Made by a program: the position numbers and the translations under genes. The notes below the pieces were generated by a model. It was not told the origin of the DNA and made no database searches. It saw only the letters and a list, made by a program, of their open reading frames with translations. From sequence record DRR378314_2231: a DNA stretch of 35,402 nucleotides; one strand, written 5' to 3'. Shown here piece after piece: positions 13,800 to 30,658 of this stretch (positions are counted from its first letter, which is position 1; each line of letters starts with the position of its first letter).

Positions 13800-13812
13800 A
13801 ACAGAGCCTCTT

Positions 13813-14379: not shown

Positions 14380-14412
14380 AGCCTGACCTTTAATGATAGA
14401 GCTTATGTGTTG

Positions 14413-14439
14413 TTATCGGCTGGTTTTGGGGAAGGTTTA
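14413..14439 (-). promoter_or_regulatory. Sigma-28 (FliA) promoter
   Basis: Minus strand TAAA-ccttccccaaaacca (15 nt)-GCCGATAA, an exact consensus match, 33 nt upstream of the 14379 ATG. Confidence 0.85.
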
Positions 14440-14485
14440 GAAAATTGAGTTATAGTTTGGACTGAAATCCTCCCGCAAAATTCCA

Positions 14486-15091
14486 CTAACTTCTTCCACC
14501 GTATATAAACCCGCCGTCTATCACATATTGAACCACTTTTTCAGTTAGTTGCTCGAGATCCATTTCTTCGGGTTTTAAATGTATTTCAGGATCTTGTGGA
14601 GCTTCGTAGGCCGACGAGATACCGGTAAATTGCGAGATTGTCCCTGTTTGTGCCTTTTTGTACAAACCTTTGGGATCACGCTGTATACAAACTTCTAATG
14701 GAGTGTCTACAAATACCTCAATAAAGCTCTTGCCTATTAATCTGCGAATATTCTCTCTATCTGATAAAAATGGTGAAATAAATGCAGTACTCAAAATTAA
14801 ACCTGCATCTAAAAGTAACCTACAAACTTCGGAAGTTCTACGAAGGTTTTCAACTCTATCAATATCATTGAATCCCAAGTCTTTGTTCAAACCGTGACGT
14901 AAATTATCGCCGTCAAGCAAATAAGTATGGCACCCCAATTCAAACAACTTACGATCAACCTCGTTTGCAATAGTTGACTTGCCCGCTCCGCTCAAACCTG
15001 TATACCAAATTAAAGCTGGCCGGTGCTGCTTTTGTCTCGCCCGCTCCTCATGCGATACACTTGTTTCGTGCCAAGTAGTATTATTAGTCAT
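14486..15091 (-). CDS. cysC: Adenylyl-sulfate (APS) kinase
   Basis: WYTGLSGAGKSTIA, LLDGDNLRHGL, AFISPF, RDPKGLYKKA, FTGISSAYEAP. Confidence 0.95.
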   Translation of the reverse strand: MTNNTTWHETSVSHEERARQKQHRPALIWYTGLSGAGKSTIANEVDRKLFELGCHTYLLDGDNLRHGLNKDLGFNDIDRVENLRRTSEVCRLLLDAGLILSTAFISPFLSDRENIRRLIGKSFIEVFVDTPLEVCIQRDPKGLYKKAQTGTISQFTGISSAYEAPQDPEIHLKPEEMDLEQLTEKVVQYVIDGGFIYGGRS

Positions 15092-15202
15092 TCTTATTTA
15101 TTCAAGTTAGTAATGGAAAATAAATACATTGTGCGACCAAAGGCTTCTGTCAAATCTCAAAACGCTCATTTATGTAACATTTGTAACGCTAAATCGGTAA
15201 TA

Positions 15203-16621
15203 TTACTTCAGCAAATTTTTGGCTTCCCAATGCGGGAAATATTTACGGATTAACGCATTCAGCTCTAATTCAAACTCACCATACTCCCGCGTTTTCCCCT
15301 CAACTTCGACCGAATCTGACAACGCTTGTTCGATCATACCCGCCCCAACGGTCATATTATTTATGCGATCAATGACAATAAAGGCACCAGTCTTCGGATT
15401 ACTCTGGTAGTCATCGAACATAACTTTTTCAGTAATGCGAACGTCTACTTCACCAATTTCATTAAGCTCCAGTTTGCCGGCCTTATGCTCAGCAAAAGAG
15501 TTCACATCAATACGATGCTGAACTTCCTCAAACTCACCCGTAGTCATTTTACTGTTAAACTTCAGATAGTATTCGCGATGCGTCTGCAGTGCATCTTCAT
15601 TCATCCACACCAACTTCGCGCGAAAGCGACTGGATACGTTCGGCAACGAATCTTTCTTCACTATCATATCGCCGCGACTAATATCTACTTGATCGCTAAG
15701 AGTTAAGGTCACCGCAGCTGGAGCCGATGCTTTTTGATACTCACCATCAAAAGTAACAATTGATTTTATTGTTGAAACTTTACCGGCAGGTAGTATCCAT
15801 ACCGTATCACCAACGGAAATTTCCCCCGTGGTAATCGTACCCGAAAAGCCACGAAACTCTGAATTTGGGCGGTTAACATACTGTACAGGAAAGCGGAAGT
15901 CATTACTCTTCGTCCCACGCTCAATAGGCATGTTTTCCAAATACTCCATTAGCGTAGAACCTCGAAACCACTTAAGATTTTCACTTCGAACGACGACATT
16001 ATCTCCTTTTAAGGCACAAACAGGAGCAAAACGAATATTTGAAATATCTAATGAGCCAGCCATTTCTAGGTAATCGGCCTGAATCTTCTTGTAGGTGTCT
16101 TGCGAATAGCCAACTAGATCCATTTTATTAACAGCAACAATCACATGCTTTATACCAAGCAATGAACAAATAAAACTGTGACGACGTGTTTGGGTCTGCA
16201 CACCCTTGCAGGCATCGATTAGAATGACTGCAACATCGCAGGTTGAAGCACCTGTCGCCATATTACGCGTATACTGCTCGTGACCCGGAGTGTCAGCAAT
16301 AATAAACTTGCGCTTATCAGTCGAAAAGTAACGGTATGCCACGTCAATGGTAATACCTTGCTCGCGCTCAGACTGCAGACCATCAACCAATAACGCCAGA
16401 TCAACTTCATCCCCCTGAGTACCGGACTTTTTAGACTCCTCGGTAATAGCCGCTAACTGGTCTTCGAAAATCATTTTACTATCGTGAAGCAAACGACCAA
16501 TTAGGGTACTTTTGCCATCATCAACGCTGCCACAGGTAATAAAGCGCAACAGTTCTTTGTTCTCTTGCTGCTTTAGGTAGGCTAAAATATCTTGTTCAAT
16601 TAAAGGAGACGCATGGCTCAT
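15203..16621 (-). CDS. cysN: Sulfate adenylyltransferase subunit 1 (GTPase)
   Basis: [58 protein letters not shown]; no fused APS kinase domain. Confidence 0.95.
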
Positions 16622-17532
16622 TAGAAGTAGCCCTCCATTTTTTTCTTTTCCATAGACCCGGCACTGTCGCGGTCAATCACACGCCCCTGACGCTCAGAAG
16701 TCTTGGTTAAAAGCATTTCTTGGATGATTTCCGGCAAGGTTGACGCCTCAGATTCAATAGCACCGGTTAACGGGTAACAACCCAATGTACGGAAGCGCAC
16801 CATTTTCATATCCGCTGTTTCGCCGTTCTCCAGCGGCATGCGGTCATCGTCCACCATAATTAAGGTGCCATCACGTTTGACCACTGGTCGTTCTTTAGCA
16901 AAGTACAATTCAGGAATGTCGATGTTTTCCAGGTAAATGTATTGCCAGATATCCAGCTCAGTCCAGTTAGACAAAGGGAACACGCGAATACTTTCGCCTT
17001 TATTCACTTTACCGTTAAAAATATTCCACAGTTCAGGGCGTTGGTTCTTCGGGTCCCAGCGATGATTTTTATCGCGAAATGAATACACACGCTCTTTCGC
17101 ACGCGATTTTTCTTCGTCACGACGAGCGCCACCAAAAGCTGCATCAAACTGGTATTTATTCAATGCTTGCTTCAGTGCCTGAGTTTTCATCACGTCGGTA
17201 TGCAAGGCACTGCCATGGCTGAAAGGCCCGATACCTTTTTCGAGGCCTTCAGGGTTAATATGCTCTAACAGCTCGAAGCCATGCTTTTTTGCCATGCGGT
17301 CACGAAATTCAATCATTTCGCGAAACTTCCAGGTGGTGTTCACGTGCATCAGTGGGAACGGAATCTTGCCGGGCGCAAAGGCCTTACGCGCCAAATGCAG
17401 CAGTACCGATGAGTCTTTACCCACCGAGTACAACATGACCGGGTTATCAAACTCCGCTGCCACTTCGCGGAAAATATGAATGGATTCATATTCGAGAGCT
17501 TTTAAATGAGTTAACTTTTCTTCTTTAATCAT
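16621..17532 (-). CDS. cysD: Sulfate adenylyltransferase subunit 2
   Basis: [56 protein letters not shown]. Start ATG 17532 after a GGGGGAG RBS; stop overlaps the cysN start. Confidence 0.95.
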
Positions 17533-17589
17533 TGACTCCCCCGCTTTAGTCATATGACAAAACATAAAGCTCTATTTTCACCGGCGTTA

Positions 17590-19041
17590 TCACTTATAGA
17601 ATTTCTGGAATACCTTGGAAAATTCAGGATAGTTTGCCGAAAGGTTAACTGAATTTTGATTGATCGGCTTATGAACCTGACCAACACTTGATGTGAGAAC
17701 TGCCTGATCATTTTTATGAAACGCGAGCATCTTTTTATCATACTCTATATTAAGAAATCCACATACTTCTGTAAGAGTTTGTTCTGGCTTTTTGACTAAA
17801 TCTTCATAGGTAATATGCAATATTCGCTCAGGAAATAGTTCTTTCCAGTGCTCAATCAAACGTAGCTCGTTCTTAATATGAGTAGCTATAGTTTCAGGAT
17901 GCCAACTCCAGCTATAATTAGCTCTAAATGGCGTCTTATAACAAGACCAAGCTATATCTTCGGCATTCCTACTAATATAAATAGCTTTACTTCTTGGCAG
18001 GATCTTAGAAAAAATTCCAAATGAGCGATTTAAAGAAAGTGTTTTATCCACAACTTTCCCATTACCGGAAAAGCTTTCTTCTGTAATATGCTGATAAACT
18101 TGAGACATATAATCAATCGCCATCTGAGCGTCACCATGCCGCTTCATGAATGATGGGAAGTCTACCCTATTTTCTGCGCTCAGATGCATGGTAGCGCCAG
18201 TAAGCGCGTTAGATTCAGCACTGCCTTTAAAAACAGGGTGGGATGCAAGCATTTGCCCCAGGAGAGTTGTTCCACTTCGGGGTAATCCAAGTACCGCCAC
18301 CGGACGGTCATAATCCAATTTTGACGTTGGGATATCGTCTAGAGCGTTACTATTAAAATTCCGAATTATCGCATTAACATCTTGTGTATCTGCCTGAATA
18401 TCAAACGGTTTTAACTGGATGAAAATCTTAGCACCGCGCTGATACATAGCTTCAGATTGCTCGTATTCTCTTCTATCCGCATATGCCTTACCTAGCGCAT
18501 AACTGTATAATGCGAAGTTTCTATCAGTTTGACTCTTAAAAGACTTTTCAGCTTCAACTAACTTGGTGAAAACACCTGTTTGCTCATTAAAATCAGTTAC
18601 TGTTGCAATTGTGTACCAAGTTATACCTAATTGTGGAGAGAGTGCCAAAGCTTTACTAAGGTTTGTCCGAGCTCCGAGCAAATCCCCGGTTTGAGCTTTC
18701 ACTGTACCAACTAAGTGATAAATTGAAGGTACAGGAACATCTCTTTTCGTTAGTGGCTCAATAAGTTTTAATGCCTTTTTGAGATCTCCTGCTTCAGCAT
18801 AAATTCCGGCCCGTTTTACATCGTTATCAACGCTCCTGCCGACCTCAGAACCGAAAAGCTCCGCCGCCTTCGTTGCAATACTTTTTTCACCAATAGTTAA
18901 CGCTAATTGAGCAGTTTTCAACCAAGTAGAGGCAAGTTTCGGTTTTGTTTGTATTAGGTAATTGAGCTGTTGAACAGCTTCACTTCTCCTGCGGCCTTTT
19001 ACTGCTGCTTCGGCATCTTTAAATACTTCCATTCCTTCCAT
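17590..19041 (-). CDS. TPR-repeat sulfotransferase (PAPS-dependent, Sulfotransfer_3-like)
   Basis: N-terminal TPR-like helices (YHLVGTVKAQTGDLLGA, YALGKAYADRREYEQS); 5'-PSB GLPRSGTTLL; 3'-PB RNAEDIAWS; YEDLV. Start probably ATG 19041 with an AGAGG RBS (ORF track 19065). No signal peptide seen. Confidence 0.85.
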   Translation of the reverse strand: MEGMEVFKDAEAAVKGRRRSEAVQQLNYLIQTKPKLASTWLKTAQLALTIGEKSIATKAAELFGSEVGRSVDNDVKRAGIYAEAGDLKKALKLIEPLTKRDVPVPSIYHLVGTVKAQTGDLLGARTNLSKALALSPQLGITWYTIATVTDFNEQTGVFTKLVEAEKSFKSQTDRNFALYSYALGKAYADRREYEQSEAMYQRGAKIFIQLKPFDIQADTQDVNAIIRNFNSNALDDIPTSKLDYDRPVAVLGLPRSGTTLLGQMLASHPVFKGSAESNALTGATMHLSAENRVDFPSFMKRHGDAQMAIDYMSQVYQHITEESFSGNGKVVDKTLSLNRSFGIFSKILPRSKAIYISRNAEDIAWSCYKTPFRANYSWSWHPETIATHIKNELRLIEHWKELFPERILHITYEDLVKKPEQTLTEVCGFLNIEYDKKMLAFHKNDQAVLTSSVGQVHKPINQNSVNLSANYPEFSKVFQKFYK

Positions 19042-19070
19042 TTGATTTACCTCTTTCCTATTCATACTAC

Positions 19071-19105
19071 AAAAAGGCCGGAAACCATTAGGTTTCCGGC
19101 CTTTT
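19071..19105 (-). terminator. Intrinsic terminator after the Oar-like TBDR
   Basis: AAAAGGCCGGAAACC-ATTA-GGTTTCCGGCCTTTT perfect hairpin with a U tract. Confidence 0.9.
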
Positions 19106-19143
19106 ACTATACAATAATTTCTGTATATAAACCTAAGCTAGTC

Positions 19144-22104
19144 TTAAAATTTCACTTCCGCACTCAAACGAACATAGCGAGGAGTTTGGAAACTAGTAGG
19201 CAGTCCGTAAAGTTCACTCGGAGCTCCGGCATAACCGCCATCTGCGCGAGGACCATCATAGATCTCATTAACTTCATTATATTCTCTAGCGGTATCATTA
19301 TTGAACACATTGAATACATCCGCACGGAATATCACATCAGAATCGCCAATTGTCATTGCATAGCGAGCAGTTAGATCTAAATTCCAAGTACTTGGAGTCG
19401 TTCCCTCTGACCCCCGACTTACTAACTCCCCGTCTTTAACAAAAGATTCAGCTTCATAAAGTGAGGCAAAAGCGTCAGTTGGATGGAAGCCGAATGAATT
19501 AAGTGGTCGTCCTGATTCCCAACGGAAGTTAGCCCCAAGACTAAATGCATCAGTTATAGAATAAGCACCCTGAATCTTAACCATATGGCGACGGTCATTT
19601 GGAAGGTTACCATATGCCCCATCAAGTAAGCCAGGTTGGTCAAAGTTAGTGGTCAAACCAGCATCATCCTGACCATTATCCGAGCGCACGAAACCTTCGC
19701 TGTTACCCCAGCTATGAGACCAGGTATAGGTTGCATCAATCATCCAATCATCAGCAAATGCGCGGCTCAATTTAACATCAACAGATCCGTACTTGCGGAT
19801 AGCTTCAGGATAACCTAAGTAACTACCTGGAATAGTGTACTGTTGGTTTTCAAGTGGCCCATCTCCATCAGGATCAGTTGTAATAGTAACATCATTACCT
19901 GGGTTAGTTAGGACATAGTAATGGAAACCAGAACAAAGCGTACAACCACTACCAAACTCTTCTTCTAGGTAATCATTGAAACCTGCATCAATAGCAATAT
20001 CTTCTAATGAAGACTTAAGATCTCGATAAGTACCTTTAATTGCTATAGACCAATTATCGGATAAAATGCGTTCATACCCTAAAATATACTCATCTTGATA
20101 CATTGGGTCGATGTCTGCATTAACTGTCTCCGCAGTACCTTTAAGTGTACCATCGGCATAAACGGCTCCGCCTAATGGAGAAGATTCGTCAACGATTGGA
20201 GTTAAATCATCGTTAATACCTTCAACCGCATAGTCAGTTAGAGTATAAAGCTCATCGCCTGCTAGACGAATGTTAGTATTCGTTGCTACAGGTAAATAAT
20301 AACGGCCGTAGTTCGCAAATATTTTGCTGTTACCATCACCGTTAACATCCCAGCTAACCCCAATACGTGGAGCCCACTGATCCGAAACATCGACAAATTT
20401 ATCACCGGCTTTATTGTAGTTCTCAAACGTCTCATTACGTAAACCAATACGAGCTACGATATCGTTAGTAACGTACCATGTATCTTGCACGTAAAATGCA
20501 TTAGATTTCGTTTCAAACGCACCTTCGTTTACATAAGTATTAAACCGAACTGTGCTACAGCCTGCATTACGAAGATCACCGGCCTGAATAAACTCTGGAT
20601 CACAACCACGATAGAAGTACGCTGTATCATTTACACGACGTGTATCCTCAACCGCTTCCAAGTCTTCATAATCAACACCGGCTCGAATGGTATGGTCAGG
20701 ATGAACATACCAATCAACGTCAATTCTATAAGCAGTACGTTTATCATCTTGAATTGACGGAGTAGTAAGACCAAAAGAAGTAAATTGAATTCCTGAGTCG
20801 TTTTCAAAGACCGCTGCAGCTGGCTCAGTTGTATTTACGTTACTGTAAGTCGCCTCATTAACACCATATAACGCGCTTATAGTTAGATCATCAGTTAAAA
20901 TGCCCGTGTACTGAAAGGCATAAGATGTGCCGCCACGTTCAAGTGCGTATTTTCCTTGAAGGTCTCCGCGTTCATCATCACCAAAGCTATAGCTGTACTT
21001 ATCAGTATCTAAATCACTTGAGTTATCCCAGCCAGTAAATTCAATTATATGATTTTGGGTAATGTACCAATCTAATTTAGCCGCAAAAAGAACATCTGCA
21101 GCTTCACGCTCGTAGTCCAACGTAGCTGTCGAATAATCACTCACACGATCTTTATAGTTAACTAAACCGAAAAAGAATAACTTATCTTCGACTAAAGCAC
21201 CGCTCGCCCAAACATTATAGTTATTTTCACCGATTTCATCGTTGCTGTTCACAATGTAATAAGGACTGCCGTTTTGATCAATTGCGGCTTGTTCTTCAAG
21301 AACAACGTCTGGCCTATTGGCTCTTAATGAGGACGGTTCAAAATACGCGCTCGCACCAGCTTTAAATTCATTAGAGCCTGATTTAGTGGTTGCGTTAATA
21401 ACACCACCTGTAGAACGGCCATACTCAGCTGAATAGCCACCGGTCTTAACCTCGAAAGTGTCGTACATTTCGAAAGGTAATTCAGAACCACCTAAACCAT
21501 TCCGGAAATTAGTTACGTTCAAACCGTTAACGTAATAAACGTTTTCACCAACTGAAGCACCACCAAATGATGTTAAGTTACCAAACGCAGAATCACCCTG
21601 AGTGGTTCCCGGTGCAAGTAAGGCTATAGAGGCTAAGTCACGAGGCACCGGTACTTTGGATAGAAACTCTTGGCCCACGACTAGTTCAGATTCAGATGAT
21701 GACGTATCGATCATTGATATAGCTGAACCAGTAACAGATATTGTTTCCATTTGGTCGCGAGTTACTAGAGTCAAATCTATATTAGTACGAGAACCAATCC
21801 GGACTGAAAGCATATCTTCTTGCAGCGTGCCATAACCCGATTTCGTTGCACGCAGCGAGTATTGTCCTGGAGGTAAAAGAGGAAAACGGTATTGACCATC
21901 AGCACCTGAAGTTACGGTACGAGTCAAACCTGTTTCAAGATTTGTAATAGTAATTTCAACACCTGAGATAACTTCGCCCGAGTTATCAACAGATTGACCT
22001 AAAAGGAAACCTTTGGATTCGTCGGCAATTGCCGGAGAGGCAATACCTAACGAAGCCGCGACTGCCGCCGCTGTAATTGTACTGCGAAATACTGATTTTC
22101 TCAT
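19144..22104 (-). CDS. Oar-like TonB-dependent receptor with an N-terminal carboxypeptidase-regulatory-like domain
   Basis: GQSVDNSG...GQYRFPLLPPGQYSL N domain, TGGYSAEYGRSTGGVINATTKSGSN, WAPRIGVSWD, C-terminal PRYVRLSAEVKF. Confidence 0.92.
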   Translation of the reverse strand: MRKSVFRSTITAAAVAASLGIASPAIADESKGFLLGQSVDNSGEVISGVEITITNLETGLTRTVTSGADGQYRFPLLPPGQYSLRATKSGYGTLQEDMLSVRIGSRTNIDLTLVTRDQMETISVTGSAISMIDTSSSESELVVGQEFLSKVPVPRDLASIALLAPGTTQGDSAFGNLTSFGGASVGENVYYVNGLNVTNFRNGLGGSELPFEMYDTFEVKTGGYSAEYGRSTGGVINATTKSGSNEFKAGASAYFEPSSLRANRPDVVLEEQAAIDQNGSPYYIVNSNDEIGENNYNVWASGALVEDKLFFFGLVNYKDRVSDYSTATLDYEREAADVLFAAKLDWYITQNHIIEFTGWDNSSDLDTDKYSYSFGDDERGDLQGKYALERGGTSYAFQYTGILTDDLTISALYGVNEATYSNVNTTEPAAAVFENDSGIQFTSFGLTTPSIQDDKRTAYRIDVDWYVHPDHTIRAGVDYEDLEAVEDTRRVNDTAYFYRGCDPEFIQAGDLRNAGCSTVRFNTYVNEGAFETKSNAFYVQDTWYVTNDIVARIGLRNETFENYNKAGDKFVDVSDQWAPRIGVSWDVNGDGNSKIFANYGRYYLPVATNTNIRLAGDELYTLTDYAVEGINDDLTPIVDESSPLGGAVYADGTLKGTAETVNADIDPMYQDEYILGYERILSDNWSIAIKGTYRDLKSSLEDIAIDAGFNDYLEEEFGSGCTLCSGFHYYVLTNPGNDVTITTDPDGDGPLENQQYTIPGSYLGYPEAIRKYGSVDVKLSRAFADDWMIDATYTWSHSWGNSEGFVRSDNGQDDAGLTTNFDQPGLLDGAYGNLPNDRRHMVKIQGAYSITDAFSLGANFRWESGRPLNSFGFHPTDAFASLYEAESFVKDGELVSRGSEGTTPSTWNLDLTARYAMTIGDSDVIFRADVFNVFNNDTAREYNEVNEIYDGPRADGGYAGAPSELYGLPTSFQTPRYVRLSAEVKF

Positions 22105-22163
22105 GAGTAAAAACTCCCTGGAACGTTTTTATTATATCGCTTCTTTTACTAGAAGCTGTATAG

Positions 22164-22192
22164 AACTTAACAGGAAGTTAAAACTTTGTAAA
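22164..22192 (-). promoter_or_regulatory. Putative sigma-70 promoter of the Oar-like TBDR
   Basis: TTTACA-17 nt-TAAGTT with an extended -10 TG; near-copy of the element at 30572-30600. Confidence 0.6.
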
Positions 22193-22253
22193 CTTTTAGT
22201 GTTAATTTTGTTTCCTAGATATGAAGTGACAAACATAACCAAATCCCGCGGCA

Positions 22254-23171: not shown

Positions 23172-23183
23172 TTTCTTCCCTTT

Positions 23184-24488
23184 TTATTCTTCTGGATAAA
23201 TATCAAAAGCAACCGTCAACCGGTTTTCGCGACTTTGAAAGGGTGTGGTTCCGTGCCAAAAATAAGAGGGGAAAAGCACGATAAGTCCCTCTTCCGGACG
23301 AATAAAGTAATCTGCATACTCCTCTTCCAACAACTCACTTTCGCCAAGCTTAAGCCACCCTTGCCCTTTGTTTGTTAATTCTTTATTTGCTGAAATATAA
23401 TAACAACCGCTTATCCAGCCTTCATTATGATAATGGCTTTTGTGATAGCCGTTGTTACGTAATTTAACCGACCATGACCCGGTAAAGTCAAAGTTTTTGC
23501 CGCTATGCTGTAAAAATGGATGTGCCGGGTCTTTTCCTAAGTTACTGACCCATTGTGCAACATGTTCTTTAATTCCCGTAGCTAAATGTTGAGTAGCCCC
23601 ACTAGAATTTGCAAACAAATGCCCGTCAGTCTGGCTACCATTACGAAGAGATTGCTCTAAAGGGTGCTGAGAGCTGCCATGAAGTTTTTCAAGTTCAAGA
23701 GAAAGCTTATTATGAAAGCTTTGCCTTGTTGAAAACTCAGAGGGGACAGGAAGGAAACTCGCACTAACAAAATGCTCAAAGTCGTACAGCTCTTGATAAC
23801 TGTCACTCAACTCGGCAGCTTTGAAAACCGAAGCGAGTAATGCCCAGTCTCCTTGTTCCGGCTTTTCACTAAGAGCTATTAGTTGACGGGCACTTTGCAA
23901 GGCCTGTTGGTATAGTTTTAACGCAAGTTCACACTTAGCTTTTGTTCGTAACGTTGCAGCAGAGTTATTACCGGAAGTTATCACTTTTTCTATACTTTTT
24001 AGCGCTTGTTCATAGCTTTTAGTTTTAAACTGAATATGCGCCCGCATAATATCAAATTCATTAACGTTTTCATTCGGGTCAAAATTTTCAAGTAAACTGA
24101 GTACATTTGAATAGTCTTCAGCTTGCAATAGTAAACGAGCATAATCATAAACTAAGGCTAGCTGAGGACGTTTTTCGCTAAGTGCTTTTTTATAAAAAGC
24201 TGTCCAATGGGGGTTAGCTAAGCGCCAATTCACCTCGGCCCAAATTCTCTGAGCCCGACGATGGTTAAGGTTCGATACTAAAAAGCGCTCAGCCATTCTA
24301 GAGGATTGTTGCATGAACTCAGGTTTGCCCATACTCGCCAAACACTGAGCCTTCAGTAAATACGCTTTTTCAGCATTAGGGAAGTAACTTAACGCTAAGG
24401 TCAGCTCCTTCTCTGCTTCTTTAAAGCGGTTGCCTTTAACCAGCTCAATAGCAAAATTATAATGTTTAATATAAAGCGATTTCGACAC
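23184..24488 (-). CDS. TPR-repeat protein with a C-terminal putative 2OG-Fe(II) oxygenase domain
   Basis: N-terminal TPR helices; QSLRNGSQT, SWSVKL, HKSHYH (HxH), WISGCYY, LFPSYFWHGT, RLTVAFD. Start probably GTG 24488, because the ORF-track start at 24542 runs through a terminator. Confidence 0.85.
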   Translation of the reverse strand: MSKSLYIKHYNFAIELVKGNRFKEAEKELTLALSYFPNAEKAYLLKAQCLASMGKPEFMQQSSRMAERFLVSNLNHRRAQRIWAEVNWRLANPHWTAFYKKALSEKRPQLALVYDYARLLLQAEDYSNVLSLLENFDPNENVNEFDIMRAHIQFKTKSYEQALKSIEKVITSGNNSAATLRTKAKCELALKLYQQALQSARQLIALSEKPEQGDWALLASVFKAAELSDSYQELYDFEHFVSASFLPVPSEFSTRQSFHNKLSLELEKLHGSSQHPLEQSLRNGSQTDGHLFANSSGATQHLATGIKEHVAQWVSNLGKDPAHPFLQHSGKNFDFTGSWSVKLRNNGYHKSHYHNEGWISGCYYISANKELTNKGQGWLKLGESELLEEEYADYFIRPEEGLIVLFPSYFWHGTTPFQSRENRLTVAFDIYPEE

Positions 24489-24507
24489 AGCAATTACCTT
24501 CAGCCAT

Positions 24508-24534
24508 AAAAAAACCCAGCCGAAGCTGGGTTTT
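24508..24534 (-). terminator. Intrinsic terminator after TBDR 24559-27297
   Basis: Minus strand AAAACCCAGC-TTCG-GCTGGGTTTTTTT. Confidence 0.9.
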
Positions 24535-24558
24535 ATCAACAACTAACGTTGGTAAACC

Positions 24559-27297
24559 TTAGAACTTCATACCTACACGAGCATACCAGTATTGGCCTGC
24601 TGTGTCATAAGATGAGTTCAAAGTATTCATATCGTTATTGTTTGTTACGTATGGAGGTTGTTTATCAAACAAGTTACGAATACCTAAAGTAAAGGTAGTG
24701 CTTTCACCATAGTAATAGTTCGCTTGCATGTCATGATAAACATAAGAGCCAGTTGAGCTGCTCACGTCCTTCGAGTCGTAGTTGATATCGTCAGTGCCTG
24801 ACTGGTAGCGAGCTGTCCAGCTAACATCAGTGTCACCAATTTTATAACCCGCGGTTAAGTTAGTACGTAACTCAGGGAATGCCGCAACACGACCACCGAA
24901 GTTCGTATCTGCACCAAACTTACCGGCTAACTCAAGAGCATCAGCACCAGCTTGAGCGACATAAGTGTAGTCACTCAAATAAGTACCGTCTAGGCGCATA
25001 GTTAATTGACCACCAGCTAAATCACGGTTCCAGTTTACGTCAAAATCAACACCTGAGGTTTCAAATACTGAAATATTCTGAGTATAAGCTAGGACACCAG
25101 CAATATAGCCGTTTGAATCACGATAGTCAGAACCTGACCAAGAAGGTCTGTCAACTGCGTCAGCTCCTAAGATAAGGCCACAAGCTTCGTTCGAGAAATT
25201 CTCGCTATTATAACATTGAGCAACGATAGCACTTGTGCTCGGAGCACCGATACCGTTTTCAATTTCAATGTCATAATAATCGACTGCAATGCTCAGGTTT
25301 TCCAAAAACGCGGGCTGGTAAACCACACCCATAGTGAAGCTGTCAGAAGTTTCTGGTTGCAGATCTTCGTTACCGCCAACCAACGTAGATGATTGGTTGT
25401 TATCTAGAGTAAAGTCCGGTGCAAAACCTTCGCCTGAACAGTTATCGATAACGTTTTGATTACTGCTATCGCCATACTCTACACAAGGGTCTGTGTAAGA
25501 AATGTTAGATTCTTCTTGCGGTGAATAAAGATCACTAATACTTGGGGCACGGAAACCTTCAGCAACAGTTGCACGAACTAACAAGCCGTCCATAGGCACG
25601 TATTCCAGGCCAAACTTCGTTGTGGTCTCACCATCGAGGAAGTCATAGTCTGAATAACGAACCGCTGCGGACAGATCTAACGACTGAACGCCTGGCAGAT
25701 CACGCAGTAATGGCACGTTAAGCTCTAAGTAAGCTTCTTCAACGTCGTAAGAACCTTCAGTTGGTTCTGCCGCAACGCTGTAAATTTGACCAAGAATAGC
25801 GCCGCCATCTGGCTGGTTCTGGTATTCTTCCCAACGTTTTTCAACACCAACAGCCCAAGCTACCGGTCCTGCCGGCAGAGTAAAGCTACCAGTATCACCC
25901 GTTAAGTTCGCCATAAACTGCTTAGTTGTTCCACGCTCAACCGGAGAGTTTGGTACTAGAACATAATCCATTAGTTCCTGGCTTAAAGTGCCGGCTTCAA
26001 ACGGGTTCCAAAGACCAGGACACGCTTCTTCTGCATCGCACAGATCCGGGTCTAAAACAGTTGCGAAACGGTCAGGGTTTGCACGACCATAGTCTACGCT
26101 CGCATCGACAAAACGCGAGTAGTTATATGATACATCCCAAGACCATCCGTTACTTAAATAACCTTCAAAACCAAAAACCATACGGTAGTCAGAGAAATCT
26201 TGAGTAAACGAACGTCCGCCAGTTTCTTCTAAACGACGGTAAATATAGAGATCTTCGCCGATTGGGTTGTCCGGATGCTCGCCAGCAACAGTTGGTCCCC
26301 AGAAAGTTCCCTCTGCAGCCATTAACTGATCTGACTGACGGTTAGTGTAACCCGCTTCCATGAACACGTTTAAGTCACGCGTCAACTCATAGTTTGCTGA
26401 TGCGTTAATTGTGAAGATGTCCTGCGGTGTTACCATATAACTTGCAGGTGCAAAGTTATATGCATCTTGCTGACCGTTGTATGGCCGCACTTCACCAGTT
26501 TCAGGATCAACGACAAAGCTGCTACCTGCATTCGCTGAGTTATATGGTGAGTTATCATCAGCTGCTGACCAAGTACTGTATGGAATGGTTGTTGAACCGC
26601 CTTGAACTATTTGGCCACCTTCTTCACTTAGTGGGATTCGTGAAAAATCACGATCGCCTTGCCAAATAGGATTACGGTTTTGATATTCAAGAGCTAAAAC
26701 GACATTACCTTTGCCGCTTGAAGCACCGATAACACCTGAAAGTTTAGTGGTTTCTCCATCACCTTCACCCGTCAAATCGTATTGAGCTGAGAATTCGGCA
26801 CCTTCAAAATCTTTTTTCGTAATGAAGTTGATAACACCGGCAATGGCATCTGAACCGTAAATGGTCGATGCGCCATCGCGCAAGACCTCAACACGCTCAA
26901 TGTAGGCCATAGGAATTGAGTTTAAGTCACCAGAAGCGTAACGGCGACCGTTCAAAAGGATCAAAGTACGGTCAGAGCCTAAACCACGCAAGTTAGCGGA
27001 CGCATAACCGCCGGAGCCGTTATTGGTGTTAGAGCCGTTGTAACCACCGTTCATTGACGGAATGTTATGTACGAACTTTTCCATCGTTGTGAAGCCTGAT
27101 GATTCGATAGCTTCAGAGTCAAATACAGTGATTGGGCTTGCTGTTTCCATATCAGTACGTTTGATACGAGAACCAGTAACCTGGATACGTTCAACATTGT
27201 CGGCACCGCTATCTTGAGCTGCGACCAACGCTGGAAAGCCTAACGTTGCTGTAACAGCGATAGCTGTTAAGCTTTTACGGAAGGTATTGCTATTCAT
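24559..27297 (-). CDS. TonB-dependent receptor
   Basis: VERIQVTGSRIKR, NLRGLGSDRTLILLNGRR, GASTIYGSDAIAGVINFI, GIRNLFDKQPP, C-terminal RVGMKF. Start ATG 27297 (ORF track 27318). Confidence 0.93.
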   Translation of the reverse strand: MNSNTFRKSLTAIAVTATLGFPALVAAQDSGADNVERIQVTGSRIKRTDMETASPITVFDSEAIESSGFTTMEKFVHNIPSMNGGYNGSNTNNGSGGYASANLRGLGSDRTLILLNGRRYASGDLNSIPMAYIERVEVLRDGASTIYGSDAIAGVINFITKKDFEGAEFSAQYDLTGEGDGETTKLSGVIGASSGKGNVVLALEYQNRNPIWQGDRDFSRIPLSEEGGQIVQGGSTTIPYSTWSAADDNSPYNSANAGSSFVVDPETGEVRPYNGQQDAYNFAPASYMVTPQDIFTINASANYELTRDLNVFMEAGYTNRQSDQLMAAEGTFWGPTVAGEHPDNPIGEDLYIYRRLEETGGRSFTQDFSDYRMVFGFEGYLSNGWSWDVSYNYSRFVDASVDYGRANPDRFATVLDPDLCDAEEACPGLWNPFEAGTLSQELMDYVLVPNSPVERGTTKQFMANLTGDTGSFTLPAGPVAWAVGVEKRWEEYQNQPDGGAILGQIYSVAAEPTEGSYDVEEAYLELNVPLLRDLPGVQSLDLSAAVRYSDYDFLDGETTTKFGLEYVPMDGLLVRATVAEGFRAPSISDLYSPQEESNISYTDPCVEYGDSSNQNVIDNCSGEGFAPDFTLDNNQSSTLVGGNEDLQPETSDSFTMGVVYQPAFLENLSIAVDYYDIEIENGIGAPSTSAIVAQCYNSENFSNEACGLILGADAVDRPSWSGSDYRDSNGYIAGVLAYTQNISVFETSGVDFDVNWNRDLAGGQLTMRLDGTYLSDYTYVAQAGADALELAGKFGADTNFGGRVAAFPELRTNLTAGYKIGDTDVSWTARYQSGTDDINYDSKDVSSSTGSYVYHDMQANYYYGESTTFTLGIRNLFDKQPPYVTNNNDMNTLNSSYDTAGQYWYARVGMKF

Positions 27298-27553
27298 AGA
27301 AATTACTCCCTGGAACATTATTTTTTAGTTGCTTGATTGGCGAAAGCAACCTGAAACCGATGGCAGTTTGACTATTTATTGTTTAGCTGCCCGTTTTCGG
27401 TAACAACCTTTTAACGCTCCGGGATTAAAATTTCAAGTGTTACGCTGACTCTTTTACTAACGTACGCAACCATATGTACAAAAAATAACCATTTGGAGTG
27501 TTTTTAAACCTATTAAGTTAATTTAAAAAACCATTGTTACAAAAAAACAAAAC

Positions 27554-27583
27554 AAAAAAGCCAGCTATAAATAGCTGGCTTTT
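27554..27583 (-). terminator. Intrinsic terminator after TBDR 27609-30512
   Basis: AAAAGCCAGCTAT-AA-ATAGCTGGCTTTT inverted repeat with a U tract on the minus strand. Confidence 0.85.
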
Positions 27584-27608
27584 ACACATAAATATCTAAG
27601 TAGACCGA

Positions 27609-30512
27609 TTACATAAATTCGTAAGAAATACTCGCAAATACATAACGACCTAATGCATCAAAGTAACCTGGATAGGTGTTACCATTACTGCCGTTAGCTC
27701 CTGTTAAATAAGGAGGATCGTTAGCTAAAATGTTATTCACACCAACACTGAACGTCGCACCTTCAGCGAACTGGTAACGACCAGTTAAGTCCAAGTAGTT
27801 TTCCGCATCTATACCGCGTGAAGTACCGGACAGATGATCAACGGCACCTAGAGCACGCCAGTTTGCTGACACAGAGACACCGTCGTTGTTCATCCAGGTC
27901 GCACGCAAGTTGTGCTGCCATTCCGGTCTAGGCGACTCACAAGTGCCACCCCATTTACCGGCGCATTCTGTTACAGCAAGTCCAACCACTGGTTGTGTAT
28001 CAAATTTAGTAAAATACGTACCCACTATGTTGAACTTCAGACGACCCCAGTCGTTATTAAGCTCTTGAGTGAAAGTAGAATTAATGTCGAAACCTGTACG
28101 CTGTTCAAAACCAATGTTCACGTTAGTTTCAACAATACTATCTTCACCTAACCAAAGCGACCCACTGCTTTCACCACGGCTAATTTGGTCACAGAAAGTT
28201 GGGTCACCAGTCTCTAAACAAAGATCAAGTGTGGTCTCTGATGGAACCGTTCCAATAGCATCCTCAACTTTGATATCAAAATAATCTACTGATACATCAA
28301 AGTTACCATCCATAGAACGATATACGAAACCAGCTGAAATGGTATCAGAAGTTTCAGGATCTAGATCAGGGTTACCACCGAAAATTGCATTGTACTGGCC
28401 TGCAGGGCTCTGAGGAATATTACCGTACTGACCAGCTGTCACACCTGAATTTTGACAAGCTTCAAGGCTAGCTTCAGGATTTGTACCTGCACATGGATCG
28501 CTGTCCATGTCATACAAACCTAAGCTTTGCGGATCAAAAAGCTCACGAATGTTAGCATGACGCGCAGCACGCTGGAAACTACCACGTAGTTTAACTGTTT
28601 GATTAACATCCCAACCTACGGCTATTTTGTAAGTATCTGTTGACTGGTCAGTGGTGTAATCTGAATAGCGATAGCCTAAATCAACAACAAGGCTGTCAGC
28701 CCAATCGGCACCGTCTACAACGTAAATTTTCGCTTCACTGAAGAATTCCTCAACACCGAGAGAACCTTCTGTACCGATTGTTGGTCCGCCTTGGCCTGCA
28801 CCATCGCCAGATTCGAAGTTACTATCTGGACGGAAAACCAGTTTTTCTTTACGGCTTGTAATACCAGCTAACAGCTCAACACCACCATAAGACCAAGGTG
28901 TTCTTACGCCATAATCGCCTAAATTACCGATAACATAACCCGTTACATCACGTAAGTTAGTTTCGCCGGTTGCATATAATGGCAGGGTTAAATAGTCCAA
29001 AGCTTCTTGCGAAACATTCGGACCAAAAATATCCCAGGGAACACAGTTTGGATCGACTCCGCTCAATGCTGAACTACAAACCGCTTCACCAGTATCTGGA
29101 TCCGTAGTTACATCTAATGCACGGCCAATATTAGTGATGCTAAAATCATTTTCATAGACAGAGCTTAGCGTTACATTACCAAAGTTAGCTGATAAGTCGT
29201 AACTCCATGTATCGTCAATAAAACCGCGAATACCAAAGACACCACGATATGAAAGATGCTGTAAGTCTTGTTGACGAGGACCACCTTCAACGTTTCGCTT
29301 ACCAATATAAACTTCTTCCCATACATCTGGATCACCTTCAGCCTGCGCCGGTCCACCAGCACCGCAAATAGTGTCTCGTTGTTGCTCTGAGAAAAGGGGG
29401 TTATCACAATTCAAGTCAACTTGCGGGAAAAACGCACCTGATTCGGCAATCTGTGACACACTGCGATCTTTGACATAACCAAGTTCAGTGAAGAATTCAA
29501 TATGGTCATTTATCTCGTACTTACCAAATGCTCCCAGAGTAATACGTTCGTCTGGACGTTGGTAATAGTTTACCGGACCATAGTTATATAAACGACCATC
29601 GTATTCCTCAAATGTGCCGTCACCAATATAGTAATCATACCCACCGGCTGTAAAATCCGTTAAGCGCCCATCAGGAATAGTACCTGAACCGCCACAAAAG
29701 TATTCACCAGTATCGGGGTCACGATCATACGCACAGATACTGTAATCTCTATCATCCTGAGTAACAGCTTTAATGTTGCGAACTGTCGCGTAGGCCGTTA
29801 TATTGCCCTTACCATTGTCAGAGTTTGCGCCAATAATGACAGAGAAATCATTCATATGGCCATCACGACCCGAGCCAGGCGCTAATGGGAAACCGGCTTC
29901 TTCGGCAGCTTGTGCAACACCGTTGTCATTATCGTTATTGTATTGATAAAAGCTGTGTTGATAATCGAGCTTAACGCCTTCGAAATCATCTTTCATGATA
30001 AAGTTAACAACACCAGCAACCGCATCTGAACCATAAGTCGCCGAAGCACCACCGGTCAATAACTCTACGTTTTCAATTAGAGCACTGGGAATTTGGTTTA
30101 AGTCCGGAGAAATACCGCCCACCAACGGCGACCCCATAACCAAACGACGTCCATTCATTAATACCAAAGTTCGTTGAGGCTCTAAACCACGTAACGAAAC
30201 GGTCGCTGTGCCCGTAGCTCCGTTTGAGTCGGTTGACGTTTGACCAGGGAAAACTTGTGGTAAATCATTTACCAAGTCTTCTGCACGAACGTTTCCACTA
30301 AATTCAAACTCTTCTGAAGTAACCTGAGAAATTGGACTTGAGCTAACTACGTTAGCCGATTGTGGGATACGAGAGCCTGTTACCTGAATACGCTCAACCG
30401 ATTCTTCCACCTCTACGTCTGTAGATGCCTGATCTTGTGCCAGAACAGGAAAACTGATCGTTCCTGCCACCGCAGCAGCAATTAAACTTTTGCGAAATTT
30501 AATGTTGTTCAT
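27609..30512 (-). CDS. TonB-dependent receptor (same subfamily as the downstream one)
   Basis: VERIQVTGSRIP, SLRGLEPQRTLVLMNGRR, GASATYGSDAVAGVVNFI, GVNNILANDPP; many loop cysteines; ends SYEFM. Confidence 0.93.
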   Translation of the reverse strand: MNNIKFRKSLIAAAVAGTISFPVLAQDQASTDVEVEESVERIQVTGSRIPQSANVVSSSPISQVTSEEFEFSGNVRAEDLVNDLPQVFPGQTSTDSNGATGTATVSLRGLEPQRTLVLMNGRRLVMGSPLVGGISPDLNQIPSALIENVELLTGGASATYGSDAVAGVVNFIMKDDFEGVKLDYQHSFYQYNNDNDNGVAQAAEEAGFPLAPGSGRDGHMNDFSVIIGANSDNGKGNITAYATVRNIKAVTQDDRDYSICAYDRDPDTGEYFCGGSGTIPDGRLTDFTAGGYDYYIGDGTFEEYDGRLYNYGPVNYYQRPDERITLGAFGKYEINDHIEFFTELGYVKDRSVSQIAESGAFFPQVDLNCDNPLFSEQQRDTICGAGGPAQAEGDPDVWEEVYIGKRNVEGGPRQQDLQHLSYRGVFGIRGFIDDTWSYDLSANFGNVTLSSVYENDFSITNIGRALDVTTDPDTGEAVCSSALSGVDPNCVPWDIFGPNVSQEALDYLTLPLYATGETNLRDVTGYVIGNLGDYGVRTPWSYGGVELLAGITSRKEKLVFRPDSNFESGDGAGQGGPTIGTEGSLGVEEFFSEAKIYVVDGADWADSLVVDLGYRYSDYTTDQSTDTYKIAVGWDVNQTVKLRGSFQRAARHANIRELFDPQSLGLYDMDSDPCAGTNPEASLEACQNSGVTAGQYGNIPQSPAGQYNAIFGGNPDLDPETSDTISAGFVYRSMDGNFDVSVDYFDIKVEDAIGTVPSETTLDLCLETGDPTFCDQISRGESSGSLWLGEDSIVETNVNIGFEQRTGFDINSTFTQELNNDWGRLKFNIVGTYFTKFDTQPVVGLAVTECAGKWGGTCESPRPEWQHNLRATWMNNDGVSVSANWRALGAVDHLSGTSRGIDAENYLDLTGRYQFAEGATFSVGVNNILANDPPYLTGANGSNGNTYPGYFDALGRYVFASISYEFM

Positions 30513-30571
30513 AAGTTAAATCCCCCGGAGATTTATTATTATTGGTTAGAAATTAATCTCTAACAGTTCAC

Positions 30572-30600
30572 AAATTACCAGCAAGTTAACTTTATGTAAA
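30572..30600 (-). promoter_or_regulatory. Putative sigma-70 promoter of TBDR 27609-30512
   Basis: TTTACA-17 nt-TAATTT with an extended -10 TG. Confidence 0.6.
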
Positions 30601-30658
30601 CTAAATGTATATTATTTGTTGATTTAGTTAATATAGACACTGTTTTAAAATATGTTAA

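Follow-up and report, generated by a model that had tools for sequence, protein, structure and literature searches.

A strain-variable island in an Idiomarina-like bacterium suggests chemical decoration of TonB-dependent receptors before export

Gene content and organization of the locus

The window analyzed here is the whole 35,402-nucleotide stretch of DNA from record DRR378314_2231. It contains a block of nine co-oriented genes on the minus strand. ORF positions, together with Pfam and NCBIfam matches, recovered all nine genes in the content and order described by a first-pass annotation. The features are as follows:

14316..30716, no strand assigned: replaceable island of 16.4 kb; flanks syntenic with the nearest genome (G001), interior different
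14486..15091, minus: cysC, adenylyl-sulfate (APS) kinase, makes PAPS (PF01583, 212 bits; NF003013, 272.8 bits, cut-off 163)
15203..16621, minus: cysN, GTPase subunit of sulfate adenylyltransferase (NF003478, 725 bits, cut-off 590)
16621..17565, minus: cysD, small subunit of sulfate adenylyltransferase (NF009214, 534.8 bits, cut-off 413)
17590..19065, minus: TPR + Sulfotransfer_3 sulfotransferase (PF13469, 103.3 bits)
19144..22104, minus: TBDR-C, Oar-like TonB-dependent receptor (CarboxypepD_reg + Plug + OMP_b-brl_4; signal peptide)
22254..23171, minus: class I SAM methyltransferase-like gene (SAM motif, predicted fold; no Pfam cut-off reached)
23184..24542, minus: TPR + 2OG-FeII_Oxy_5 oxygenase-like enzyme (PF13759, 79.6 bits, cut-off 27)
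24559..27318, minus: TBDR-B, TonB-dependent receptor (Plug + barrel)
27556..27583, minus: intrinsic terminator downstream of TBDR-A (stem of 12 bp, then a T-run)
27609..30512, minus: TBDR-A, TonB-dependent receptor

CysD, CysN and CysC each exceed their NCBIfam cut-offs. The cysD and cysN genes overlap by one base, and 24 bp separate the end of the sulfotransferase gene from the start of cysD. Both 27318 and 27297 are possible start positions for TBDR-B. As a strong terminator is located between TBDR-A and TBDR-B, TBDR-A is predicted to form a separate transcription unit. The regions ahead of the receptor and cys genes were searched for Fur and Pho boxes; the best matches were 8-12/19 and 7-9/14, respectively, values that shuffled sequences equaled (p of at least 0.14). 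The only small intergenic ORF, with 40 codons and a GTG start (22132-22254), was considered as a candidate gene and found to be unsupported.

The Pfam search of the nine genes returned no glycoside hydrolase, sulfatase, inner-membrane transporter, NRPS/PKS or glycosyltransferase domain, in agreement with the earlier observation that genes of polysaccharide utilization and classical biosynthesis are missing. A SusD-like lipoprotein and glycan-degrading enzymes are absent from the nine genes as well, and the block is thus distinct from a polysaccharide utilization locus. The island likewise contains no inner-membrane importer, exporter, precursor peptide or scaffold-synthesis gene.

A strain-variable site in the host genus

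The host is a marine Idiomarina-like bacterium. Both flanks of the island are syntenic with G001 at 93-97% nucleotide identity, and the interior of the site in that genome is occupied by another receptor set of 9.75 kb. G001 is 99% complete, and searches of it for the sulfotransferase, CysD, CysC, PF01507 (cysH-type) and PF01747 (ATP sulfurylase) all came back empty. The site is hypervariable across congeners. The nine genes thus make up an island that varies from strain to strain in this Idiomarina-like genome.

For each cassette, natural congeners that carry it and others that lack it are found at this one chromosomal site.

The TPR-sulfotransferase and its predicted fold

The sulfotransferase is composed of a TPR arm (approximately residues 1-240) and a PAPS-dependent domain resembling tyrosylprotein sulfotransferases (TPSTs; approximately residues 250-491). 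The best natural TPR matches of the arm are the repeats of O-GlcNAc transferase (OGT; E about 1e-20). In an alignment of 23 sequences, the PAPS-binding loop G260-L-P-R-S-G-T-T267 is invariant or nearly so and aligns with the corresponding loop of TPSTs and the CurM sulfotransferase (CurM ST). E284, R366 and S374 are invariant in the same alignment, R366 and S374 forming the 3'-phosphate-binding Arg/Ser motif. E284 lies 21 residues past the P-loop and matches the Glu in the 'GEET' segment of TPSTs, the catalytic base; the C-terminal QVxKPIN segment also aligns with these enzymes. In a profile search, the best PDB sulfotransferase matches were CurM ST (1.8e-17) and TPSTs (6.4e-15 to 1.7e-12). 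The structural model (pLDDT 93.7) returned human TPST2 and TPST1 at the top of the Foldseek results, with TPST2/TPST1 at ranks 1, 2 and 4-7 (E 3.8e-07 to 1.2e-06; TM-score on target 0.58-0.67). By sequence and predicted fold, the enzyme is closest to the tyrosylprotein sulfotransferases. TPR-sulfotransferases were found in 101 of the 121 genomes sampled from the host's family, and also in Sphingomonadales, Caulobacterales and other groups rich in TonB receptors.

The fold bears on whether the enzymes act on another part of the envelope, that is, on LPS, capsule, lipid or exported proteins encoded elsewhere, in which case the receptors would only be travelling along in an island for surface variation. 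The island varies strongly among congeners, as do islands that encode exposed structures, and sulfotransferases are described among the strain-specific O-chain modifiers of Alteromonas (PMC3542563). However, TPSTs rank well ahead of carbohydrate sulfotransferases in the fold search, the island encodes no glycosyltransferase, flippase or polymerase domain, and the receptor-sulfotransferase pair is kept across genera in unrelated genomic contexts. We regard such a target as quite unlikely.

Receptor and PEP-CTERM partners of the sulfotransferases

To describe the neighborhood of the enzyme, 79 homologues were surveyed. Receptor gene starts occur at 2.14 per 10 kb within 1 kb of a sulfotransferase gene versus 0.13-0.29 per 10 kb farther away, a roughly tenfold contrast that places the arrangement beyond chance. 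A TonB receptor is located at most 600 bp away in 28 of the 79 loci, and a homologous PEP-CTERM surface protein in 14, the latter without a receptor in 13; neither partner lies within this distance in 38 loci, part of them on short contigs. Enrichment of the homologues next to TonB receptors, which had been proposed earlier as a check, is confirmed by this survey.

An Oar-like receptor adjoins the sulfotransferase in 9/9 of the closest loci, and the major clades are common to the sulfotransferase and receptor trees. The remaining neighbors vary between receptor-sulfotransferase loci, which leaves the pair as the unit that is conserved, and the two genes are co-directional at some loci and convergent at others. 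TBDR-C, which combines the CarboxypepD_reg and Plug domains, OMP_b-brl_4 barrel and signal peptide of an Oar-like receptor, is the conserved partner of the sulfotransferase. Relatives of TBDR-C occur at the same site without a sulfotransferase in two congeners (46% identity in G032, 38% in G126), which indicates that a receptor of this type can exist unmodified. The PEP-CTERM-linked sulfotransferases fall into one 15-row clade (support 100%) that is nested among clades whose partners are receptors. As the PEP-CTERM protein is not a transporter, the partner of a sulfotransferase need not be one.

Oxygenase, methyltransferase and recurrence of the enzyme block

The closest homologues of the oxygenase have 434 aa, compared with 452 codons in the ORF found here; the start is therefore probably 18 codons inside the ORF, near 24488, which would remove the hydrophobic N-terminus of the long ORF. 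Inspection of the N-termini and these homologue lengths bear out the earlier claim that the tailoring enzymes carry no signal peptides. Against TIGR02466 the oxygenase scores 45.1 bits, under the cut-off of 62.5. Its metal-binding residues are atypical: H367, H370, H372, H430 and R441 are invariant, as is T443, and no classical HxD/E motif was identified in the alignment. The sole PDB relative is the uncharacterized 3BVC (E 0.4).

The neighboring gene had been annotated as a SAM methyltransferase. All of its Pfam matches fall under the cut-off, but a DxGxGNG SAM motif is present, with D50, G54, N55 and G56 invariant and G52 nearly so, and the model (pLDDT 92.4) retrieves Coq5 and other class I methyltransferases as top Foldseek matches (E 2.8e-08). 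On this motif and the predicted fold, the gene at 22254-23171 is a class I SAM methyltransferase. The protein contains an inserted helical bundle but lacks a TPR, and the structures nearest to it are those of small-molecule methyltransferases, Coq5 and BezA among them.

The genomic associations of both enzymes extend beyond the island. In many Proteobacteria, receptors of these subfamilies adjoin genes for the three enzyme types, the TPR-sulfotransferase, the TPR-oxygenase and the class I methyltransferase. In other genera, TBDR-B orthologues precede a TPR-oxygenase gene, a methyltransferase gene or both; the methyltransferase gene is found behind a receptor of the TBDR-B type both in congeners and in Rheinheimera, and members of the TBDR-A subfamily directly precede a TPR-oxygenase in G080 and other genera. 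Among the best 20 TPR-oxygenase loci in the host's family, a receptor is present in 18 (adjacent in 12 of these), a TPR-sulfotransferase in 13 and a methyltransferase homologue in 10; nine loci combine all of these with a receptor. The block of receptor, oxygenase, methyltransferase and sulfotransferase thus recurs in several genera, and in view of this joint recurrence the three receptor-enzyme pairs are not regarded as independent cassettes.

Fusions and gene blocks in other organisms offer a further perspective on the substrate. PF05118 hydroxylases occur in related gene blocks of other genera, and fusion proteins of an Asp/Asn-hydroxylase with a sulfotransferase were found; the fusions hint that a protein may first be hydroxylated and then O-sulfated on the hydroxyl so created, a modification not known to be described in bacteria. 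In one such gene block of another genus (L159), the C-terminus of both a sulfotransferase and an Asp/Asn-hydroxylase-like protein is a SEC-C motif, that of the SecA metal-binding domain. The motif is present in 12 of the best 150 representatives; the SEC-C-bearing sulfotransferase is only 22% identical to the enzyme at 17590-19065, and the cluster with the motif is a single one. The motif CxCx(7-11)C[CH] is absent from the C-termini of the sulfotransferase, oxygenase and methyltransferase of the island. A preprint (bioRxiv 10.1101/613315) describes the SecA metal-binding domain as binding SecB and ribosomes. The SEC-C fusions, as sequence features, point to nascent or SecB-bound proteins as targets.

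These data also bear on ligand tailoring, in which the enzymes would modify a peptide or small molecule that passes through the receptors, either a nutrient or signal taken up from outside or a product that the cell itself makes, secretes and re-imports. TonB receptors are transporters, the nearest folds of the methyltransferase belong to small-molecule enzymes, and at the island site of G001 and G080 an S9 peptidase gene follows a receptor gene. In addition, some lasso-peptide clusters are described in two papers (PMC8498205, PMC10040529) as containing putative sulfotransferase genes. However, the island encodes neither a precursor nor a maturation enzyme, an exporter or an inner-membrane importer, and none of these is conserved beside the receptor-enzyme pairs; moreover, one sulfotransferase clade is paired with a non-transporter, and the SEC-C fusions indicate proteins that are nascent or bound to SecB. 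Sulfating an imported nutrient would also presumably carry a high energy cost. We consider ligand tailoring unlikely. Lasso-peptide import through a receptor and the S9 peptidase was rejected for G001 and G080: acylaminoacyl peptidases are the closest matches of this enzyme, the best 60 PDB matches include no lasso isopeptidase, and no lasso genes were found.

Probable PAPS supply by CysDNC

To assess the role of the sulfate-activation genes, 11 genomes of the genus, each at least 98% complete, were compared. A CysD-type gene is present in 7/7 genomes with Sulfotransfer_3 versus 0/4 without it, these genomes being related and hence non-independent samples. Of the cysD-bearing genomes, only G080 has cysH (1/7), and it also has a sulfite-reductase domain. 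Both cysH and sulfite reductase genes are absent from G001. G121 shows the order cysD-cysN-transporter-cysC without cysH or NIR_SIR, and its sole Sulfotransfer_3 gene comes after a receptor.

This distribution is most likely explained by CysDNC acting as a PAPS supply for sulfation, and the earlier claim of a dedicated supply is upheld by it. We infer that the PAPS made by CysDNC feeds the sulfotransferase and not sulfur assimilation, the distribution of cysH being known from congeners; the strain itself may carry a cysH elsewhere. If there were no system at all, cysDNC would serve ordinary sulfur assimilation, and enzymes and receptors would be neighbors by chance. The cysD and cysN genes share 81-91% identity with their counterparts in congeners and are thus native to the genus, and neither cysD nor cysC was found within 10 kb at any other of the 80 sulfotransferase loci. 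Against chance association stand the perfect co-occurrence of cysD with the sulfotransferase in the genus, the lack of cysH in 6/7 cysD-bearing genomes, the elevated receptor density beside sulfotransferases and the repetition of the enzyme block in several genera; we find this explanation highly improbable.

Substrate and proposed mechanism

The island suggests that bacterial surface receptors may be chemically decorated before export. We hypothesize that the sulfotransferase holds a polypeptide in the cytoplasm by its TPR arm and O-sulfates it, and that the likeliest target would be the unfolded precursor of the neighboring exported protein prior to Sec translocation, here TBDR-C. The oxygenase and methyltransferase may act similarly on TBDR-B or TBDR-A, and the result would be receptors with sulfate, hydroxyl and methyl groups that vary by strain. 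That the enzymes modify neighboring exported receptors in the cytoplasm, with PAPS provided by CysDNC, is in our estimation close to an even call, if slightly short of one. A broader reading is put forward more tentatively, as possible but somewhat doubtful: TonB receptors, and elsewhere PEP-CTERM proteins, would be sulfated, hydroxylated and methylated in the cytoplasm before Sec export by TPR- or SEC-C-targeted enzymes, and swapped cassettes would create strain-specific receptor surfaces that alter ligand or phage recognition. The tuning of ligand or phage recognition conjectured earlier would agree with one observation only, the hypervariable makeup of the island in congeners.

The proposal that a polypeptide, and specifically a neighboring exported protein, is the substrate gains circumstantial support from the TPST-like fold, the PEP-CTERM clade and the SEC-C sister fusions, but no modified residue or acceptor motif was found. 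Tyrosines in acidic context provide no guide, as they account for 12/59 Tyr in TBDR-C, 8/45 in A, 10/54 in B and 4/31 in D. Comparison of 22 sulfotransferase-linked with 6 unlinked receptors yielded 31 columns conserved only in the former, from which no acceptor site could be named; they include T357 and S410 and are scattered, mostly within predicted strands. A complex prediction for the sulfotransferase and TBDR-C residues 1-500, run without supplied alignments and without controls, scored 0.00 against a mark of 0.34, which speaks neither for nor against an interaction. Further points against the proposal are the TBDR-C relatives that lack a sulfotransferase in G032 and G126, the 38 loci with neither partner, the low identity of the SEC-C-bearing enzyme, the lack of a TPR and the small-molecule folds of the methyltransferase, and the atypical metal-binding residues of the oxygenase.

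Comparison with known systems

TPSTs are Golgi membrane enzymes. The island sulfotransferase resembles human TPST1/TPST2 and the tick enzyme (PDB 3AP1, 3AP3, 5WRJ, 8W5Z) in the alignment of the GxPRSGTT loop, the Glu, RxxxxxxS and QVxKPIN; in contrast, it is bacterial and cytoplasmic, has a 240-residue N-terminal TPR arm and shares 17-20% identity with them. RaxST of Xanthomonas oryzae is a cytoplasmic PAPS-dependent sulfotransferase that is not known to carry a TPR arm; it sulfates the ribosomal peptide RaxX and has its own PAPS genes, RaxPQ. The island shares with it a bacterial PAPS-dependent sulfotransferase, probably fed by its own PAPS-synthesis genes, whereas its enzyme has a TPR arm and is partnered with a TonB receptor; a domain and small-ORF search of the island found no RaxX-type precursor gene, peptidase-containing ABC exporter or membrane-fusion protein. 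Rhizobial NodP/NodQ represent a second sulfate-activation set feeding NodH, which sulfates a lipo-chitooligosaccharide. Sulfate-activation genes are probably likewise kept for one sulfotransferase here; unlike the rhizobial case, the genus mostly lacks assimilatory PAPS use.

In the HMW1C-HMW1A, TibC-TibA and Aah-AIDA-I pairs, a cytoplasmic transferase encoded next to an exported adhesin glycosylates it before Sec export. The proposed logic would be analogous, with an enzyme encoded beside its exported outer-membrane substrate, although sulfate, hydroxyl and methyl groups take the place of sugars, the enzyme families are unrelated and the partners are transporters, not adhesins. O-GlcNAc transferase and human Asp/Asn beta-hydroxylase, both of which act on proteins, likewise place a TPR arm before the catalytic domain, a transferase in the former and an oxygenase in the latter; these domains differ from those of the island enzymes, and the island oxygenase belongs to PF13759, not PF05118. 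Fiu-YbiX and PiuA-PiuC are iron-regulated pairs of a TonB receptor and a cytoplasmic Fe/2OG oxygenase whose role is unexplained. The island shares this adjacency of an outer-membrane receptor gene and a gene for a cytoplasmic Fe/2OG oxygenase-like enzyme, but has no detected Fur box and additionally contains TPR arms, a sulfotransferase and PAPS genes.

A literature search found no described receptor-sulfotransferase or receptor-TPR-oxygenase module and no published function, and no covalent modification system for TonB-dependent receptors is described in the literature searched. Gram-negative bacteria take up nutrients mainly through TonB-dependent receptors, which phages and bacteriocins also commonly use as receptors. 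Should the receptor prove to be the substrate, the system would represent a new class of bacterial surface-protein modification, with relevance for the host range of phages and for marine nutrient uptake. As the host lineage mostly lacks assimilatory PAPS use, 35S-sulfate would be expected chiefly in the sulfotransferase product. With few other uses of PAPS and natural congeners with and without the cassettes, the island provides an unusually clean test system.

Gene content of the block

Gene calling on the window placed nine genes in a single orientation on the minus strand (14486-30512). The nine co-oriented genes of the first-pass annotation were each backed by Pfam and NCBIfam, and the lack of hydrolase, sulfatase, inner-membrane transporter, NRPS/PKS and glycosyltransferase domains that it had described was borne out by a Pfam search of the nine.

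cysC, cysN, cysD, minus strand: all exceed curated cut-offs (Pfam, NCBIfam)
Sulfotransferase, minus strand: 491 aa, TPR and Sulfotransfer_3 (Pfam, NCBIfam)
TBDR-C, minus strand: Oar-like receptor with CarboxypepD_reg, Plug and OMP_b-brl_4 (Pfam)
Methyltransferase-like protein, minus strand: 305 aa
Oxygenase, minus strand: TPR and PF13759 (Pfam)
TBDR-A and TBDR-B, minus strand: two additional TonB-dependent receptors (Pfam)

A strong terminator follows TBDR-A, and the other eight genes are spaced at -1 to 149 bp. The methyltransferase reached no Pfam cut-off; its SAM motif is invariant in the homologue alignment, and a fold search with its confidently predicted model (pLDDT 92.4) found class I methyltransferases. 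The oxygenase ORF as called probably starts 18 codons too early, since its closest homologues have 434 aa, and trimming it would remove the sole hydrophobic N-terminus among the enzymes. A polysaccharide utilisation locus was rejected, as its defining features were tested for and not found.

A replaceable island at one chromosomal site

The window organism is probably an Idiomarina, judging from the source names of homologues 94-97% identical. The nearest genome, G001 (a single contig, 99% complete), shares 93-94% nucleotide identity with window 1-14315 and 97% with 30717-35383, and between these flanks carries a different 9.75-kb set: a receptor, a methyltransferase homologue, a receptor, an S9 peptidase and a small orphan gene. 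Further gene combinations occupy the same site in three congeners, bounded by RNase T/DUF294/SSF genes on one side and FlgO genes on the other. In G080, TBDR-C is followed by the sulfotransferase, TBDR-B by the methyltransferase and TBDR-A by a 617-aa TPR-oxygenase, after which come a further receptor and an S9 peptidase. At this site G032 and G126 hold a TBDR-C relative, TBDR-A, TBDR-B with the methyltransferase, and a receptor, without a sulfotransferase. Protein comparison showed far greater divergence in island genes than in the flanks: TBDR-B and the methyltransferase are 69% and 64% identical between the window and G001, versus about 90% for RNase T and FlgO in the flanks.

13221-14379, minus strand: left border, consisting of two FlgO-family genes in tandem; the N-terminal end of the second (14316-14379) lies past the stop of G001 synteny
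30659-34963, minus strand: conserved right border, with an RNase T-like exonuclease, a DUF294 nucleotidyltransferase that also has cNMP-binding and CBS domains, and an SSF symporter
47-9304, minus strand: gene run kept in G001 and G080, with a fatty-acid hydroxylase, a CDP-alcohol phosphatidyltransferase, the ATPase, permease and binding protein of an ABC transporter, a fourth TonB receptor and a 725-aa protein in which a VTT membrane domain is fused to a pyridine-nucleotide-disulfide oxidoreductase

An SSF symporter of the right-border type comes after the receptor-sulfotransferase pair in Pseudidiomarina (L013). The S9 peptidase is acylaminoacyl-peptidase-like and follows a receptor in both G001 (L009:1683-3632) and G080 (L103:13811-15766); the two genes may form a cassette for peptide use.

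The sulfotransferase and its probable PAPS supply

In a PDB search with a profile of 23 homologues, the top-ranking sulfotransferases were CurM ST (1.8e-17) and the tyrosylprotein sulfotransferases (TPSTs; 6.4e-15 to 1.7e-12), with the TPRs of O-GlcNAc transferase as the best natural match to the TPR arm. The isolated domain aligns with TPSTs over residues 13-233 of 251, taking in the GxPRSGTT loop, a Glu 21 residues further, the Arg/Ser motif and a common QVxKPIN segment, and the model (pLDDT 93.7) has human TPST2 and TPST1 as its top fold matches. The catalytic domain is thus a TPST-type sulfotransferase, the family features tested being present; the enzyme is predicted to be cytoplasmic and PAPS-dependent, and sits in a branch in which the characterised enzymes have protein-borne substrates.

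The suggestion of a dedicated PAPS supply is well supported by G001 and the genus genomes, this strain being seen in the window alone. A search of the G001 genome gave no match to CysD, CysC, PF01507 (which covers CysD and CysH alike) or PF01747 (ATP sulfurylase), although these family searches were positive in 14/14 and 5/14 control genomes. The genus survey comprised 13 genomes, 11 of them at least 98% complete. Seven of these 11 carry a Sulfotransfer_3 gene and all seven a CysD-type gene, which is found in 0/4 of those without a sulfotransferase; two genomes of 86-87% completeness, with sulfotransferases and no CysD found, were counted as uninformative. Only G080 among the seven adds a gene of CysH type as well as a sulfite-reductase domain. 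The 2.5-Mb genome of G121 encodes cysD-cysN-(CitMHS/TrkA_C transporter)-cysC (L106:9680-14561), and a genome search found neither cysH nor NIR_SIR; its only Sulfotransfer_3 gene, a 663-aa TPR-sulfotransferase, directly follows an 823-aa receptor. Sulfate activation is apparently kept there for sulfation only. The window cysD and cysN are native to the genus, because their products are 81-91% identical to the congener proteins. They adjoin a sulfotransferase only in the window's strain: neither cysD nor cysC lies within 10 kb in any of the other 80 sulfotransferase loci (best 80 of 512).

Partners of the sulfotransferase

Of 512 confirmed loci from the sulfotransferase-homologue alignment, the best 80 made up the locus sample, with a clear sulfotransferase ORF in 79. 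A receptor lies within 600 bp in 28/79 and is Oar-like in all nine closest loci. The proposed neighbourhood and co-phylogeny surveys both came out in favour of a partnership: receptor starts are about 10 times denser in the first kilobase around the sulfotransferase than further out, and the tree of 22 sulfotransferases has its major clades in common with that of the 22 receptors paired with them. Orientation is co-directional at some loci and convergent at others, and the remaining neighbours are unrelated housekeeping genes, different at each locus. The receptor evolves about threefold more slowly, being 73-75% identical to the copies in Rheinheimera, Pseudidiomarina and G080, versus 40-47% for the sulfotransferase. 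After the Rheinheimera sulfotransferase (L010:11553-13647) lie a small ORF, a RiPP-modification enzyme of the MbnB/TglH/ChrH family (DUF692) and a 253-aa ORF, which together are probably an unrelated cluster for modifying peptides.

In 14/79 loci of this sample, from alpha-, beta- and gammaproteobacteria, the receptor's place is taken by a homologous 380-430-aa protein (jackhmmer E at most 1e-176) with a signal peptide, a PEP-CTERM tail (PF07589 in 3/3 tested) and no further Pfam domain (L042:8585-9784, L028, L032, L033, L035, L041, L049, L052, L053, L055, L058, L059, L064, L069). The sulfotransferases so partnered group in a single clade of 15 rows (100% support) that is nested among clades with receptor partners, and partner type changes 15 times on the tree versus a shuffled mean of 37.6. 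PEP-CTERM protein and TPR-sulfotransferase seem to move as one unit. The idea that the enzymes tailor a transported ligand is hard to reconcile with a partner that is no transporter, and we consider it unlikely.

Recurrent blocks with oxygenase and methyltransferase

TPR-oxygenase loci were surveyed over 7 kb on each side of the 20 best full-length matches in the family. A receptor is present in 18/20 (directly adjacent in 12), a TPR-sulfotransferase in 13/20 and a homologue of the window methyltransferase in 10/20. All occur together in 9/20, and the first-pass view of a single system has better support than that of separate cassettes. A block common to seven loci in four genera (L143:4022-13581, L144, L145, L151, L153, L154, L155) combines receptor, TPR-PF13759 oxygenase and methyltransferase with a PF05118 Asp/Asn beta-hydroxylase, a TPR-sulfotransferase in convergent orientation and a prolyl-hydroxylase-like 2OG oxygenase. 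Receptors in these loci are related to TBDR-A and TBDR-B (up to 1224 bits), and the unit of TBDR-B, oxygenase and methyltransferase is therefore a conserved arrangement.

Two Idiomarina genomes (L142:4711-8818, L146:5376-8806) encode a second TPR-PF13759 oxygenase of 602-606 aa with no adjoining receptor. Its neighbours in L142 are a POT-family peptide transporter on one side and, on the other, a GGDEF gene with monomeric isocitrate dehydrogenase after it; L146 has the confirmed dehydrogenase and a transporter-like ORF, with no GGDEF ORF.

A possible route for modification of exported proteins

We tentatively propose, at slightly under even probability, that a TPR-sulfotransferase fed by CysDNC, together with the oxygenase and methyltransferase, modifies the precursor of the adjoining exported protein in the cytoplasm. 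CysDNC would make PAPS; the sulfotransferase would bind and sulfate the polypeptide, and the other two enzymes would work likewise. An exported envelope protein, receptor or PEP-CTERM, is the immediate partner in 41/79 loci (best 80 of 512). Against the proposal stand the 38/79 with neither, the TBDR-C relatives without a sulfotransferase at the same site, the resemblance of the methyltransferase to a small-molecule enzyme in the fold search, and the sequence comparisons of receptors, in which no acceptor site for sulfation could be named. Action on another envelope target is rather improbable, a little more so than ligand tailoring, and a mere chance neighbourhood of the genes is highly improbable.

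HMW1C, TibC and Aah glycosylate exported adhesins in the cytoplasm, and NodPQ feeds NodH; precursor modification would follow a similar logic, by analogy only. The RaxST/RaxX system was rejected, its defining features having been tested for and not found. A literature search found no description of a receptor-sulfotransferase/TPR-oxygenase module. New here are the PAPS genes inside the island, the series of genomes with and without each gene at a single chromosomal site, the clade partnered with PEP-CTERM proteins and the recurrent four-gene block.

SEC-C motifs in related enzymes

In one of the enzyme clusters surveyed above, from another genus of the same family, two enzymes (L159:10528-12780, minus strand) each end in a SEC-C motif (PF02810, 37.2 and 29.9 bits; cut-off 20.4): a sulfotransferase of 344 aa that lacks TPR and an Asp/Asn-hydroxylase-like cupin of 384 aa. 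The SecA metal-binding domain is described as binding SecB and ribosomes (bioRxiv 10.1101/613315). YecA is named a Sec-pathway chaperone in a preprint and YchJ a transcription factor in a 2026 paper, so the motif is suggestive, not specific. The L159 sulfotransferase shares only 22% identity with that of the window, and this evidence thus concerns the type of system and not the window protein directly. As a query against 1.84 billion representatives it gave 5416 matches, with a SEC-C motif in 12 of the best 150. Fusions among the representatives join a hydroxylase to a sulfotransferase and DUF4915, to two sulfotransferase domains, or to a sulfotransferase and SEC-C, the last combination also being new.
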